This document shows, piece by piece, positions 1,547 to 7,737 of a DNA stretch of 64,000 bases (position 1 is its first letter; each line of letters opens with the position of its first letter). The stretch is from NCBI GenBank assembly GCA_016926735.1, contig JAFGOA010000223.1, positions 35,147-99,146 of the forward strand, written 5' to 3'. The stretch comes from Promethearchaeota archaeon. GTDB lineage: Archaea; Asgardarchaeota; Lokiarchaeia; Sigyniarchaeales; SOKP01. Both the position numbers and the translations under genes were made by a program. Below the pieces are notes generated by a model. That model was not told the origin of the DNA. It did no database searches and worked only from the letters and a program-made list of their open reading frames with translations.

Positions 1547-2824
1547 TTAAGAAATACTAACCGATTCTAATAAAAATTGTTTATACGAAGTTTGGAACAT
1601 GTCCCTTATTCGCACAGGCTGAAACCAGTAGCCTCTATCGGATAGATCTTGAATAAAACCATCTCCGACTACTTTTCTGAGAATATTTAACGCTCCATTT
1701 ACATCAGCATTAAGAATGTAATTCGAGCCTTTAAATATTCCCCGTTTTATCCTTTTACCAACATAATGTTGATGTTTCTGTATTGGTTCTAAATCTAATG
1801 AACTACATTTTGACGTGTAGGATTCATTGACATCATGAACTTTAATTCCTACAAGGCGAGCTTTATAAGTTATCATTTGTTTAAGCTTTTGAATGGGGAT
1901 ATTCAAAAAATTTTGGTTATTTCGTTTGCCCATTCGAATATTTTGTTTTATATTATCTAATTTACCCAAACAAATGTGTCCTATCTGTTTTTCCAAACAA
2001 TAACCGACAATGAATTGAGCTGTTTTATGCAAATAATCCTTTACAATTGAGTTTCTCCTTATTGTAATCTTATCGAGTCTATCAGTCCACTTTAGTTCTT
2101 GTTTATCCTTAATAGAAAAAAATCTTGCTTTCTGTTTATTCCATTGCCGATTAATTGATTTTAGAATTCTCCCTGAAATAATAATTGGTTTAGTATTCAT
2201 ATTCTCTGCTGTAGTGATTAAATTATTCAATCCAAAATCGATTGATAAATATCTCGTGGTATCTAATTTTGACGTTTCTATTTCTTTTTTATATATTATT
2301 TCAATTTCATAAAATCCTTTTCGTGGCAAAATCCTTATCTGTTGATACTCTCCAAAACGCTTGTTTTTATACGTAGGAATTTTAATTTCAATAGGGTTTT
2401 CAAACTCAGGAAATAGTTCTTTAAAAAGGTGAGACATTGTAAGAACGATTTTATCCTGTTTAATCTTGCTATTCTGGTTAGTAAATATCAAAATGTTGTT
2501 ACAACCTTTCTTGTATTTAGGTGGTCTCGGTCTTCCATTGAATCTTTTCCTATCTTTTTTCCACTCCTTTATAGCATTGAAGAAACTTTTCCAGTTTTTA
2601 TCCAAGACTTTAAGAATTTGTTGAGAGGTTTGAGCTTTTAACAATTTATATTGGCTATATTTTTTCATTATGAAATCTAAATCGTTATATCGAAGCCAAT
2701 TCTCTAGATGAAAGAAATCCTGTCGAATATACCAATTAGCTTGATTATAAAGCTTCTTAGAAATTGAACAGAGCACATCTAAATGCTCAGTTCTCAGAGT
2801 CCTGAATTTATATACTAATTTCAT
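1547..2824 (-). CDS. tnpB: RNA-guided endonuclease TnpB
   Basis: SKKLYNQANW, RPPKYK, RuvC-I SIDFGLNN, VNESYTSKCS, RuvC-III NADVNGALNI. Confidence 0.93.
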   Translation of the reverse strand: MKLVYKFRTLRTEHLDVLCSISKKLYNQANWYIRQDFFHLENWLRYNDLDFIMKKYSQYKLLKAQTSQQILKVLDKNWKSFFNAIKEWKKDRKRFNGRPRPPKYKKGCNNILIFTNQNSKIKQDKIVLTMSHLFKELFPEFENPIEIKIPTYKNKRFGEYQQIRILPRKGFYEIEIIYKKEIETSKLDTTRYLSIDFGLNNLITTAENMNTKPIIISGRILKSINRQWNKQKARFFSIKDKQELKWTDRLDKITIRRNSIVKDYLHKTAQFIVGYCLEKQIGHICLGKLDNIKQNIRMGKRNNQNFLNIPIQKLKQMITYKARLVGIKVHDVNESYTSKCSSLDLEPIQKHQHYVGKRIKRGIFKGSNYILNADVNGALNILRKVVGDGFIQDLSDRGYWFQPVRIRDMFQTSYKQFLLESVSIS

Positions 2825-2934
2825 CCTGAAATTCCTCTTTCTTTTTTGTTACAAACTCTTTTCTTCTCCTTGAATTAATTGACATAGCATAACAATTAAA
2901 CTCTTAACAGATTTAAGACTTCATAAGCTTTCAT
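2808..2934 (-). pseudogene. tnpA: IS607 TnpA (serine recombinase) remnant with large internal deletion
   Basis: Hand translation: MKAYEVLNLLR from ATG 2934, joined out of frame to FNCYAMSINSRRRKEFVTKKKEEFQDEISI*, whose stop overlaps the tnpB start; both pieces resemble IS607 TnpA termini. Confidence 0.7.
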
Positions 2935-3632
2935 ATTATTAAATGAATAATTCTTAATAAAAAAGGTAAGTGAGTCTTATGATTTTTAATAAAAATGGGG
3001 ATGATATTATCTCAACTACTTATTGGAATTTTATAAAAATCTATAATTATTTATAATAGTTAAAAATTCATTACACTTTTGGGATTTAAATGGATATTTA
3101 GATAGAAATACTCAAGCATTTATCTTCCGTAACCCTAATTATTATACTGAAATAAAAGAAATTATGAATAGTGATTGGATACATAGATTATTCAATCAGG
3201 CTCTCGATAATTTATAACAATTTAAAAATTCTATTTCTTTTCTAAAAACACATAGTTTTGAAAAATTATTTTTATTTCAAAATACGATATATTTATCCAA
3301 TTATATATGTATAGATTAACATAACTTGAAGATACTTCAAATAATTTAATATTTTTGTTTTCTTTAGGAAAAAAAAATTTTCCCTAATATTTTAGGATGG
3401 TAAATTTTCAAACGAGCTTTTTTTTGTTTTTTACTACATCCTAAGAGTATATGATTTTATAAATACAAAATCTATAGAATAATCTCAAATAAAAAAAAAA
3501 AATTGAGAAAATAATGTAAGAAAATTGTACTATATAATGAAGGGATTTGATATCTATACAAAATAGATTTTAATGAAAAGGAGATTAATAAGAGAAAATT
3601 TTAGGTAAAATTTTAATATAAGGTGAATAAAA

Positions 3633-4841: not shown

Positions 4842-5267
4842 ATGAGCGAACAATGGAAACATGCTGATTTAGCCTCTCTTATTGGAAAATTAGCATGGAT
4901 TATTGGTGTTATTTGTGGTGTGATTCAATTAATTATTGGAATTGCATATGGATCTTTCACCTTATTAGGTACTCTCTATATTGTTCCAATAAATATATTT
5001 TGGGCGATTGGCGGTGTGATTATTATAATAATATCCCTTTTAATTATTAAACCCCAATTTTCAGATAAATGTGCAAATAAGGAATGGGACGCACTATATG
5101 ATTGGGCATTAGATCTTGGAGGAACTAAAATATGGTGGATGTTAATTTGGATTGTTGTATTTATTATTTTTGGCTGGGGATATAGTGCTGGTCCAATTAT
5201 AATAGTCTTTCTTCTTCTTTTCCTTGCTGGTCCAGAGAATACTAAATGGGACAAAAATAAAAAATAA
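4842..5267 (+). CDS. Small integral membrane protein, unknown function
   Basis: About 4 hydrophobic segments, followed by a T-tract. Confidence 0.7.
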   Translation: MSEQWKHADLASLIGKLAWIIGVICGVIQLIIGIAYGSFTLLGTLYIVPINIFWAIGGVIIIIISLLIIKPQFSDKCANKEWDALYDWALDLGGTKIWWMLIWIVVFIIFGWGYSAGPIIIVFLLLFLAGPENTKWDKNKK

Positions 5268-5412: not shown

Positions 5413-5543
5413 TTATAGTCCTTTAGGGCCATTTTCATATATTTTATATGCTTCATCAACAGATGTATTATCATGAACAATTGCTCTTACAGCTTTGATC
5501 ATACCAATAGGACTATCACTTTGAAAAATATTTCTTTCCATAT
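5413..5543 (-). pseudogene. Displaced second copy of the aldolase last exon ([42 protein letters not shown])
   Basis: Same 131-nt length as exon 3 (6893-7023); 20 differences over the 129 nt from ATG to stop by hand alignment. Confidence 0.9.
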
Positions 5544-5559
5544 ATTCAATTACGATATT

Positions 5560-6708
5560 TTATTTTAATTCTTCAAATTTCTTTCCTTTAAGTTGCTTAT
5601 GCCAATAATGTGGTTTTGGTTTTTTAATATTCCATTTTAAACATATTTCATTAACAATCCTTGGATATACATTATATATTTCACATATTTTTTTAATTGG
5701 CATTTTCCAAACTAATTTTATCAGTTCATCCTTTTGAATGGAGTCTTCAAAAATATTTTTAGATGCAACTCTAAAATATTTCCTCTTTCGCGATAAACTA
5801 TCTGGAAAATTATCTAACATTTCATTAAATAGTTTTCCGCCCAAACTAAAATAATAATTCCCTTTACCATCGGGATTGATTTTATGAGGAATATTAAATC
5901 TTTTTTTTATTTCTTCTAAAATTAATTTACTACCAATATGAAATTGATTAGTCCCTTCTTTTCCATCACCATCAAAAAAACCTAGTAAAAATGCCAGATC
6001 TAATTCTCTATTATCTAAATTAGGAAATCTTGTTCTTTTTTTACTACTTTTTACATAACCTAATGTGTATAGATCACTTTGAACATTAGAATTTTTAAAA
6101 GTAATCCTTACATATGTTCTTAGTTCATTTTTAGTCATTTTTGTTCGATATTTCTTGTATTTAGGATTTAAACCTATCGCTTTACAATACCTATCTATTA
6201 AAATTTCATCATTTTTGCTTAATTCAAGTTTTAATTCTCCTCTTTCTCCTAAATAAACTTCAGCCCACAATATTCCAAGCCAATAAGCTTTATTTTTTGA
6301 ATTAATTTTTTTAAAGTAATTTATATTTAAATCAAGATGATAGTTTAAAACTTTTAGACCTTTTTTTCTAGATATTGGTAATTCTTCATTTGATTCTTGG
6401 TATTTCTTAATAAATTTTAATGTATTCTTCCCACGTAAGCCAAAATAAGCTTTAATATTATTACTCCATTCGTTTAATTCATCTAAAGCAATTTTAAATT
6501 GAGGATTCACTTTAATATTTCTTATAATTCTTTTTATACGTCTTTCATAATCACATAATATAAGACTTAATTTTTTATAAGATAAACTTCCATTATGAAT
6601 TATTTTAACTTTAAAACCATTAATAAATAAGGTGGATGATACAATCTTAAAAATCTCGTTTCTTAAATCTTTTATTAATTCTGATGCAGAATAAGTAAGT
6701 CTTCTCAT
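5560..6708 (-). CDS. LAGLIDADG-family homing endonuclease-like protein (free-standing)
   Basis: Two LAGLIDADG-type helices, KAYWLGILWAEVY (degenerate) and LAFLLGFFDGDG; very basic; C-terminal HTH-like segment. Confidence 0.8.
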   Translation of the reverse strand: MRRLTYSASELIKDLRNEIFKIVSSTLFINGFKVKIIHNGSLSYKKLSLILCDYERRIKRIIRNIKVNPQFKIALDELNEWSNNIKAYFGLRGKNTLKFIKKYQESNEELPISRKKGLKVLNYHLDLNINYFKKINSKNKAYWLGILWAEVYLGERGELKLELSKNDEILIDRYCKAIGLNPKYKKYRTKMTKNELRTYVRITFKNSNVQSDLYTLGYVKSSKKRTRFPNLDNRELDLAFLLGFFDGDGKEGTNQFHIGSKLILEEIKKRFNIPHKINPDGKGNYYFSLGGKLFNEMLDNFPDSLSRKRKYFRVASKNIFEDSIQKDELIKLVWKMPIKKICEIYNVYPRIVNEICLKWNIKKPKPHYWHKQLKGKKFEELK

Positions 6709-6892
6709 TCCTCAATTATTTTGTTGTGTTTATTTCTGGTCTTTTTTCTATTTTTATCTAATTGAATTACTTCTCTAGTTTAAAGAATCTTTATTGATTT
6801 ATATGGTTTTTATTAATATATATTTTAATAGAGTCTGCAGATTTTTTTAAATAAAATATTTATATTATAACAAGAAAAAAAAAATAAAAAAA

Positions 6893-7737
6893 TTAAAGTC
6901 CTTTTGGACCGTTTTCATATATGCTATATGCTTCATCAATAGACTTATTCTCATGAACTATAGCTCTTACTGCTTTAATCATGCCAATAGGGCTGTCACT
7001 TTGGAATATATTTCTTCCCATATTTGCGCCTATAATTATAAAAAATAGTTATAGTCTACGCCGACAGCTCCTTTATCAATAGCATTCCTTGCCATAATTA
7101 AAGCATCACGCTCCTCAATCTTCTTTCCACCAGCTATTACAACCGGTACTGGAGCGATAGAAGTGACTTCGTCGAAGTTCTCACAATAATATGTTTTTAC
7201 AAAAGTGGCACCTATTTCTGCTGCCATTCTACTTGCCATACCCAAATATCTTGCATCTCTAACCATTTCCCGTCCAACTGCTGTTACTGCTAAGACTGGA
7301 ATACCATAATCTTGTCCCCAATTTACAATCTTAGTTAAATTCATTAAAGATTGTTTTTCAAATTCACCACCTACAAAGATGGAACAGGTAATTGCTGAAA
7401 CATTTAATCTTATCGCATCTTCAATTGTAACATTTATTTCTTCATTTGAAAGTTCTTTTAACATACTTGCTCCGGCAGATACTCTTAGAACGATAGGTAC
7501 ATCAAAATCCGGTGAAACACAATTTCGAAGCATACCTCGTGTTAACATTAAAGCATCAGCATATTCAAAAAGGGGTTCTAACTTCTTAAAAGATTTTAAC
7601 ATTCCTGGGATATTGCCAAAATATTCATGAGTATGTATTAATTATACATATTTTCCATGATCGACAGCAAGCATGACGCAATGCCCAGATTTAGGTTTAA
7701 TTATTCGGGATAATCTATTTTGCATTCCCCAATCCAT
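6893..7737 (-). CDS. lsrF: LsrF/DhnA-type class I aldolase/thiolase in three exons (7737-7654, 7623-7056, 7023-6893), 260 aa after splicing
   Basis: Exon 1 [13 protein letters not shown]...MLAVDHG; exon 2 YFG...ATFVKTYY...VVIAGGKK...GAVGV; exon 3 [24 protein letters not shown]; 84+568+131=783 nt, in frame. Confidence 0.88.
7024..7055 (-). other. Candidate 32-nt BHB intron 2 of the aldolase gene
   Basis: mRNA GCGU-AG^A-CUAUAACUAU UUUUU AUAAUUAUAG-GCGC-AA^A; splicing gives GGC GUA GAU AUG GGA (GVDMG). Confidence 0.85.
7624..7653 (-). other. Candidate 30-nt BHB intron 1 of the aldolase gene
   Basis: mRNA CAUG-GA^A-AA UAUGUAU AAUUA AUACAUA CU-CAUG-AA^U; splicing gives GAU CAU GGA UAU UUU (DHGYF); contains an in-frame UAA. 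Confidence 0.85.

Follow-up and report, generated by a model that had tools for sequence, protein, structure and literature searches.

How does an archaeal gene come to carry its own last exon twice, once on either side of an endonuclease gene? The question is raised by a 64,000-nucleotide (nt) stretch of a Promethearchaeota archaeon of the class Lokiarchaeia (assembly GCA_016926735.1, contig JAFGOA010000223.1, positions 35,147 to 99,146), hereafter the window. The window has a G+C content of 27%, lies on a contig of a 3.9-Mb genome that is 99% complete, and encodes on its minus strand an aldolase gene interrupted by two mini-introns of the bulge-helix-bulge (BHB) type. The order on that strand is exon 2, a 32-nt intron (intron 2), exon 3, an open reading frame (ORF) of 382 amino acids (aa), and then exon 3 once more, again with 131 nt. 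The account that we consider probable is that a homing cassette replaced the end of the aldolase gene, bringing with it the 32-nt BHB intron, an exon 3 of its own, and a free-standing LAGLIDADG endonuclease gene.

An initial annotation, made from the letters of the DNA, had given the same order of elements, which is reproduced from the sequence and its ORFs. The 32-nt insert that it placed at intron 2 also stands, while its boundaries move: the RNA structure puts them 2 nt earlier, and the protein is identical. For the aldolase, an uninterrupted orthologue matches NCBIfam PRK08227 (LsrF-like) with an E value of 1.5e-116. Removal of introns 1 and 2 leaves a 260-aa frame without internal stop, with the junctions VDHG/YFGN and GVD/MGRN found in uninterrupted orthologues. 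The stop codon of the 382-aa ORF and the distal exon-3 copy are 16 nt apart. Genomes of the compared set are designated by G-numbers, G000 being that of the window, and loci taken from them by L-numbers; G001 and G002 are congeners of G000, and G007 and G018 belong to another genus. The layout of this locus recurs in G007, G113, and G144 and so is no accident of a single genome.

The direction of the replacement can be read in G007. In the 5′ gene tree, G007 is the sister of G052 (100/100) with short branches, and G052 has neither intron 2 nor the endonuclease. Positions 2746-3506 of the G007 locus (L025) match G052 at 94.9% identity; the match stops ~10 nt before the junction and resumes 14 nt after it, at 5521-5682, with 95.7% identity. 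A 24-nt tract of G052 spanning the GVD/MGR junction thereby corresponds to a cassette of ~2 kb in G007, made up of the last part of exon 2, intron 2, the proximal copy of exon 3, the endonuclease gene, and an ORF for a small membrane protein. Compared with exon 3 of G052, the distal copy of G007 differs at 4 of 114 nt (96% identity) and the proximal copy at 31 of 114 (73%), and the distal copy groups with G052 in the 3′ tree (100/98). It follows that the distal copy of G007 is the resident gene end and that the intron and the proximal exon arrived with the endonuclease gene. The limits of the replaced tract further place the repaired break within a 24-nt stretch that contains the intron insertion site. 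Two claims of the initial annotation are thus borne out in this pair of genomes, namely that a mobile unit enters at GVD/MGR with its own gene end and mini-intron, and that the distal copy matches the resident allele of a relative lacking the endonuclease. The opposite possibility that it had named, a vertically inherited proximal exon, is contradicted in G007.

Replaced gene ends are not confined to the aldolase. Among 31 loci of the endonuclease family scored with flanks of 1.5 kb, there are seven at which two copies of a gene end flank the endonuclease gene: four at the aldolase, two at a SNF2 helicase, and one at a third gene. One of the SNF2 loci lies in G000 itself (L002, G000:C95:23074-27240), where a paralogous endonuclease (415 aa, 40% identical) stands between the helicase end and an ORF of 85 aa in which the C-terminus of the helicase recurs. 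Its distal end agrees with G002 at 56 of 64 aa and its proximal end at 33 of 65 aa, and on this alignment the proximal end is clearly an import. At the third gene (L046, G044:C299:966-3830), the C-terminal 39 aa are duplicated (87% identical) around an inverted, truncated endonuclease gene. The host gene of L046 is presumably acyl-CoA-synthetase-like, as read from its translation alone. Two side observations concern these loci: the SNF2 arrangement is repeated in G080 (L039), with stop codons in the distal copy, and the L046 host gene is also broken at ~410-432 (..SWMMA* / MWNWL..), which looks like another mini-intron.

In the window, the two exon-3 copies, each 131 nt long and starting with AT-ATG, differ at 20 of 126 coding nt, or 20 of 129 when the common stop codon is counted. 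The differences amount to 13 synonymous codon changes and five residue changes (G2E, E24D, K26T, I28V, and S33K). These figures, including the distal glycine-to-glutamate change, had already been given by the initial annotation and are recovered by comparing the copies. The Nei-Gojobori method yields 14.0 synonymous (Sd) and 6.0 nonsynonymous (Nd) differences between the proximal and distal copies and a ratio of nonsynonymous to synonymous divergence (dN/dS) of 0.06. Five changes are private to the distal copy, and just one of them is nonsynonymous (G2E, beside the junction). Among 22 sequences compared, the 20 other exon-3 copies that extend over the codon in question all have the glycine of MGRN, the truncated distal copy of G007 being without this codon. 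Because the divergence is of the purifying kind, with a dN/dS of 0.06 and one nonsynonymous change among the five private to the distal copy, most of it arose while both copies were functional, in different genomes. This agrees with the earlier proposal that the copies diverged as functional gene ends in different lineages and not by a recent tandem duplication.

Neighbouring genes and residue states help to assign the two copies of the window. The distal copy of G000 adjoins a membrane-protein gene, and in G001 and G002 a homologue of this gene, starting with MSEEWK..., comes immediately after the aldolase. The distal copy of G007 likewise adjoins the neighbour gene that follows the aldolase in congeners. 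Residues D24 and V28 of the G000 distal copy are common to G001 and G002, and K33 is common to G002 only. By analogy with G007, the distal copy of the window is most likely the resident gene end and the proximal copy the imported one. The 3′ third of the gene is mosaic: G000 and G002 are ~91% identical up to about nt 450 of the coding sequence and ~77% identical thereafter, and around the junction G000 is nearer to G018 (55/60) and G007 (53/60) than to its congeners (46/60 and 49/60). Comparison of the flanks that follow both exon-3 copies with G001, G002, G007, and G113 returned only T-run or low-complexity matches and was set aside as uninformative on residency.

The proposed course of events is as follows. 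As the genome comparisons show, a mobile unit consisting of the last few nt of exon 2, the 32-nt BHB mini-intron, a replacement exon 3, and the endonuclease gene enters the aldolase at GVD/MGR. The endonuclease would cut intron-less alleles within ~10-14 nt of the junction, and the break would be repaired from a cassette-bearing genome, with the left homology provided by exon 2; on the right side, the cut end may be joined without homology or may pair with the distal remnant of the donor. By the same comparisons, the imported exon 3 takes over as the gene end, presumably the expressed one, and the resident exon 3 is stranded as a presumably untranslated remnant after the endonuclease gene, beside its resident neighbour. 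The pre-mRNA would be spliced by a heteromeric EndA and an RNA ligase, restoring the reading frame. The intron would split the recognition site and the distal copy would be without the left half-site, leaving a cassette genome immune. The spacer before the endonuclease gene, read by eye, would comprise a terminator followed by a promoter and ribosome-binding site of the gene's own. The elements of the locus are collected in the table.

Table. Elements of the aldolase locus, with positions counted from the first nucleotide of the window
Element	Position	Strand	Remarks
Exon 1 of the LsrF/DhnA-type aldolase (DeoC/LacD family)	7654..7737	-	ATG at 7737
Intron 1, 30-nt BHB mini-intron with an in-frame TAA inside; outside the cassette	7624..7653	-	
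Exon 2; its final nucleotides supply the 5′ strand of the helix of intron 2	7056..7623	-	Pfam DeoC, E 4.4e-14
Intron 2, 32-nt BHB mini-intron at the GVD/MGR junction	7024..7055	-	
Proximal exon 3, 131 nt including stop (AT + ATG...TAA); expressed, most likely imported gene end	6893..7023	-	Analogy with G007
Spacer: T-run after the exon-3 stop, A+T-rich stretch, GAGGA 5 nt before the endonuclease ATG	6709..6892	-	
Free-standing two-motif LAGLIDADG endonuclease gene, 382 aa, helical N- and C-terminal extensions	5560..6708	-	
Distal exon-3 copy, 131 nt, AT-ATG start, without exon 2 upstream, G2E; displaced, most likely resident gene end	5413..5543	-	
Membrane-protein gene, 141 aa; resident downstream neighbour and synteny marker	4842..5267	+	Homologous ORFs in G001, G002

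The product of the 382-aa ORF is, by its modelled fold, a two-motif LAGLIDADG endonuclease. Its AlphaFold2 (AF2) model, with the pseudo-dimeric alpha-beta-beta-alpha-beta-beta-alpha fold of single-chain enzymes of this class, has a predicted local distance difference test (pLDDT) score of 88.9. Foldseek gave 11 matches in the PDB with an E value of 0.001 or below; every one is a LAGLIDADG enzyme, a maturase, or an endonuclease domain of an intein, and I-Tsp061I ranks first (E 7.9e-6). A profile of the endonuclease family matches an I-DmoI chimera with an E value of 1.8e-4. The two motifs, ..WLGILWAEV.. and ..LLGFFDGDG.., lie ~100 aa apart, and the catalytic acids are kept in all 17 aligned homologues as either E or D in motif 1 and as an invariant D in motif 2.

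Relatives of this protein are widespread and often occur several to a genome; of the 154 genomes of the order 77 contain them, and of the 134 genomes that the family has besides G000, 74 do. Close relatives, with 53-63% identity over the full length, number just five (G007, G113, G107, G066, and G144). With G000, these six orthologues occur in 6 of the 13 genomes that have intron 2 and in none of the 122 that do not, and five of the six stand directly beside exon 3. The initial annotation had allowed for homologues unconnected with this site, an outcome that did not materialize for the orthologues. In G007, G113, and G144, the endonuclease gene lies downstream of exon 3 in the same orientation, with an exon-3 remnant after it; the distal remnants comprise 42 codons in G000, 38 in G007, 22 in G144, and 17 in G113. 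In G007, the endonuclease gene is separated from the distal exon copy by an extra 142-aa membrane-protein ORF (L025, 4993-5421, minus strand), which may be cargo.

Several members of the family have a more complex make-up. In-frame fusions to long N-terminal regions, among them zinc-ribbon-like (CxxC..CxxC) or K/E-rich, low-complexity ones, occur in L031 (G066), L030 (G107), L044 (G013), L033, L036, and L043; the fused members have open frames of 587-1358 aa, and several family members carry stop codons. An intein reading of the long-frame members was rejected by eye, as unrelated N-terminal regions are joined to a whole endonuclease-like protein and the host protein does not resume. These features bear on the possibility that the cassette homed in as proposed but that the endonuclease of the window is now inactive, decaying, or reused, for example in DNA binding through its extra domains. 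The long unrelated fusions and the stop codons would suit such a fate, as would the 16% nt difference between the G000 copies, by which the event is not recent. The window ORF is nevertheless intact, both catalytic acids are kept throughout the 17 aligned homologues, the fold is confidently LAGLIDADG, and the event in G007 is recent, with flanks ~95% identical to G052. A fossil endonuclease in the window is thus regarded as unlikely, if well worth keeping in mind.

Intron 2 was traced by junction-pattern searches in 135 genomes of the family. It is present in 13 of them and the uninterrupted junction in 101; no genome has both, and 21 match neither pattern, the patterns being blind to introns with altered flanking codons. 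The gapped intron-2 pattern matched at 22 places in 20 of the 135 genomes, of which 13 were kept, all of them aldolase junctions by tblastn. The other nine matches (G000:C144, G069, G070 twice, G072, G081, G088, G099, and G120) have neither aldolase flanks nor a hairpin and were dropped by eye. A further locus, L092 (G125:C11:30500-36066), has two uninterrupted junctions 1.9 kb apart and was considered as an intron-less cassette. It was rejected in favour of a partial tandem duplication that comprises an upstream 283-aa gene and the aldolase's 3′ half and is free of any endonuclease.

On its predicted structure, intron 2 is a relaxed-form BHB. It consists of a 4-bp helix in which the end of exon 2 pairs with that of the intron, a 3-nt bulge (AGA) on the 5′ strand, and a 9-bp intron hairpin. 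Across the 13 genomes, pairing holds in 95.9% of cells and in 98.1% of those of the central helix; 7 of 13 pairs change on both sides (20 cells), a value reached in 0 of 500 shuffles. Sliding the pairing partners by 1-3 columns lowers pairing to 27-42%. Even wobble bases of the host codons are matched by the intron, that of the Gly codon pairing as C-G in eight genomes, U-A in three, and A-U in two, and that of the Asp codon as C-G in eight and U-A in five. The minimum-free-energy fold from RNAfold contains the same 4-bp helix, AGA bulge, and intron hairpin. Cleavage after the second nucleotide of each bulge would take out 32 nt and yield the GVD/MGRN found in the 101 uninterrupted genes. An alternative splice joining exon 2 with the distal copy was also considered and rejected, there being no BHB-like fold or helix partner upstream of that copy (-0.4 kcal/mol). 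Asgard EndA is reported to be an (alpha-beta)2 enzyme, with a loop linked to a broad substrate range (PMC5829648), and the two EndA-domain genes of G000, on C33 and C100, fit such an enzyme.

The aldolase gene carries further mini-introns. An alignment of 31 of the ~114 junction-bearing genomes, chosen because their loci had already been fetched, also underlies the trees; G055 was excluded because its contig is truncated. The alignment has inserts at three positions, of 30 nt in 5 genomes, 36 nt in 3, and 32 nt in 12, so that the gene has at least three mini-intron sites with a patchy distribution. Intron 1, the 30-nt insert, is found in G000, G001, and G002 of one genus and in G021 and G011 of another. 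Its predicted fold has a CAUG/CAUG helix between bulges, and its removal gives DHG/YFG; no endonuclease was seen near it. The 36-nt insert, at an AGG/KK site (alignment columns 623-659), is an observation from outside the window and occurs in L007 (G002), L075 (G146), and L082 (G005), representing three genera.

Against the replacement of the gene end by a homing cassette, a series of observations has to be weighed. (i) Pfam LAGLIDADG_3 matches the 382-aa ORF at 16.4 bits (E 0.011), below the cut-off of 22.5, and an NCBIfam search of the ORF gave no match. (ii) The fold of intron 2 is no more stable than that of shuffled A+U-rich sequence (z -0.57), and on its 3′ side a clean 3-nt bulge is replaced by a 2x2 internal loop, beyond which lies an outer helix of 3 bp. 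(iii) RtcB (PF01139) was not found in the 99%-complete G000 assembly and was found in 19 of 20 relatives searched, including all three congeners; its absence is probably an assembly gap. (iv) The G107 orthologue of the endonuclease is inverted, convergent with exon 3, on a contig that ends before a remnant could appear, and the G066 orthologue lies on another contig. (v) The 5′ ends of the distal remnants differ, lying at the junction, at +14, at ~+62, and at +75 nt, a spread that would fit later trimming, separate events, or cleavage within exon 3, and that agrees with either proposed way of forming the right-hand junction. (vi) No duplication was found within 1.5 kb at 24 of the 31 family loci, and the SNF2 cassettes (two loci) and that of the third gene (one locus) are without an intron at the junction. 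(vii) The two exon-3 copies of G000 are sisters in the 3′ tree (98/93) and lie at nearly equal distances from G002 (19 and 23 of 126 nt), and no close cassette-free relative of G000 was found among the compared genomes. (viii) Seven of the 13 intron-2 genomes are without the endonuclease gene or a second exon copy in the ~830 to 1400 nt searched downstream of exon 3.

Because the SNF2 and third-gene cassettes are intron-less, the intron is not a required part of the cassette. The initial annotation had offered the locus as a mechanism for the spread of BHB mini-introns; this holds for the co-import of intron 2 in G007 and does not extend to the paralogous cassettes at the two other genes. The sister position of the G000 copies means that their donor was close kin and not distant, and the sequences suggest that this donor was probably an unsampled close relative or that the copies have been partly homogenised. 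Exon trees, which had been proposed as a check, accordingly place the distal copy of G007 with the resident allele of G052 and that of G000 with its own proximal copy. As no close cassette-free relative of G000 was found, the call of the resident copy there draws on the synteny, on three residue states, and on analogy.

The seven endonuclease-less carriers point to a possible alternative, in which the intron came first in these lineages. Intron 2 would have been gained or inherited independently, the cassette would target exon 3 or a place elsewhere, and the link between the two would reflect shared history without any protection. Besides the seven carriers, the intron-less SNF2 and third-gene cassettes speak for this order, as do the distal remnants of G113 and G144, which begin 62-75 nt inside exon 3. 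G133 adds to them. Its exon 3 is of the proximal type, yet the flank behind it is the one found after the distal remnant of G113, so that G133 equals G113 minus the segment between the repeats; its intron is identical to that of G113, the two alleles differing by the endonuclease segment only. In G137, exon 3 is chimeric relative to G144, with a proximal-type 5′ end and with distal-type sequence over the final ~35 nt and the flank. On the replacement account, such alleles would arise if repair ended within the proximal exon 3 or if the two exon-3 copies recombined later; either route would keep the intron and lose the endonuclease, and the endonuclease-less alleles would fit both.

Three results stand against an intron that came first. 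G052 is without both elements and its sister G007 has both, and the foreign tract of G007, which begins ~10 nt ahead of the intron site, takes in the intron as well. The distal copy of G000 starts at the junction and that of G007 14 nt after it, which a deep cut in exon 3 does not account for. Finally, the intron label requires 10 changes among 12 carriers on the 5′ tree, with at least six of them forced by well-supported branches, and simple vertical descent is therefore disfavoured. An independent origin of intron 2 is accordingly judged quite improbable, and replacement by a cassette that carried the intron is retained.

The two remaining explanations concern the exon copies alone. A local tandem duplication of exon 3, followed by divergence and by an endonuclease gene landing between the copies, would involve no import and would agree with the G000 copies being each other's nearest relatives in the 3′ tree. 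A copy without a gene body should, however, drift freely, yet the divergence is purifying (14 synonymous against 6 nonsynonymous differences) and a single distal-specific change in five is nonsynonymous; the layout of G007 is also clearly an import, as is the SNF2 case within G000, and we give this explanation very little credence. A reversed polarity, in which the endonuclease gene and the distal copy were imported after the stop of a resident intron-bearing gene and G133, with its proximal-type exon 3 and G113-type flank, would be the empty site, is just as hard to sustain, since it is the distal end that resembles the resident allele in G007 (96% against 73% identity to G052), in the SNF2 gene (56/64 against 33/65 aa to G002), and in the residues shared by the G000 copy with G001 and G002 (D24, V28) or with G002 (K33).

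A wider view would make free-standing LAGLIDADG endonucleases a general engine of intron gain in Asgard archaea, later lost and leaving orphan mini-introns such as introns 1 and 3. Conserved coding sites would be cut and repaired from BHB-split alleles, and introns and gene ends would spread through populations and across genera. In this general form the proposal is speculative, and we think it unlikely to hold as it stands. If true, it would amount to intron colonisation of protein genes at the level of DNA, driven by endonucleases, in the closest prokaryotic relatives of eukaryotes. The lineage gives the locus special interest for research on intron origins. The locus itself provides a concrete mechanism, in which a non-coding 32-nt intron reaches a gene that had none by way of an endonuclease gene outside it and then outlasts that endonuclease. 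The strategy of replacing gene ends extends from fungal mitochondria to archaeal chromosomes, affecting several conserved genes and producing mosaics across genera. For annotation, it accounts for split or apparently truncated genes and for stray gene-end fragments in these genomes.

What appears new is the host (an Asgard chromosome), the intron type (a 32-nt BHB intron in mRNA), and the endonuclease family; gene-end-replacing cassettes and collaborative homing are themselves known kinds. A literature search, with supplements and subscription journals outside its coverage, gave no description of BHB introns in Asgard protein genes or of a free-standing Asgard LAGLIDADG family, nor were gene hybrids or collaborative homing found described for archaea or for such mini-introns. 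A 2026 preprint on tRNA introns of Asgard archaea does not refer to homing or to LAGLIDADG in its text.

Among known systems, the endonucleases of archaeal rRNA and tRNA BHB introns, such as I-DmoI and I-Tsp061I, have the same fold, provide the nearest solved structures, and share the splicing expected from EndA and a ligase. Their genes, however, lie inside the intron of a stable RNA, whereas the Asgard gene lies outside an intron that is too small to encode it, in a protein-coding host. To our knowledge, the archaeal protein-gene BHB introns in print are essentially those of crenarchaeal cbf5, without a mechanism of spread. Watanabe 2002 and Yoshinari 2006 are further references for the cbf5 pre-mRNA intron. 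It is a BHB intron in a protein-coding gene (PMC2738675), and the Asgard introns resemble it in their kind of host, in a patchy pattern of gain and loss, and in the link to a hetero-oligomeric EndA. They differ from it in phylum and gene, and no associated endonuclease or mobility mechanism is known to us for cbf5.

The initial annotation had drawn parallels with phages and with fungal mitochondria, and both hold in architecture. The phage process is termed collaborative homing, and Zeng, Bonocora, and Shub reportedly worked on it. In phages, trans homing is described for the free-standing F-CphI beside the cyanophage psbA intron and for T4 mobE with the defunct I-TevIII intron (PMC6083498, PMC2790892). 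As there, a free-standing endonuclease gene stands beside an endonuclease-less intron, and G007 gained both relative to G052; the intron appears to be carried by break repair, and its insertion site coincides with the presumed target. Unlike the phage cases, the intron is a BHB intron, the Asgard cassette brings a new gene end besides and strands the former one, and the cleavage site is a presumed one.

Fungal mitochondrial gene hybrids include those of Allomyces macrogynus atp6, of Glomus sp. atp6, atp9, cox2, and nad3, of Rhizopus atp9, and of Mortierella cox2 (PMC3630166). As described there, they consist of a gene core, an in-phase foreign C-terminus, a LAGLIDADG or GIY-YIG ORF, and the native C-terminus; the native end matches a close relative and the inserted end is divergent, with the protein conserved, and in one Glomus cox2 hybrid a group I intron stands just before the inserted C-terminus (PMC3630166). 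The Asgard locus has the same order, with the native end downstream. It differs from the fungal hybrids in (i) its host DNA, an archaeal chromosome and not an organelle, (ii) its intron, a 32-nt BHB predicted to be spliced by proteins and not a self-splicing group I intron, (iii) its endonuclease, a member of a distinct family that is spread across the Lokiarchaeia and has additional N- and C-terminal domains, and (iv) the involvement of at least three nuclear-type host genes.

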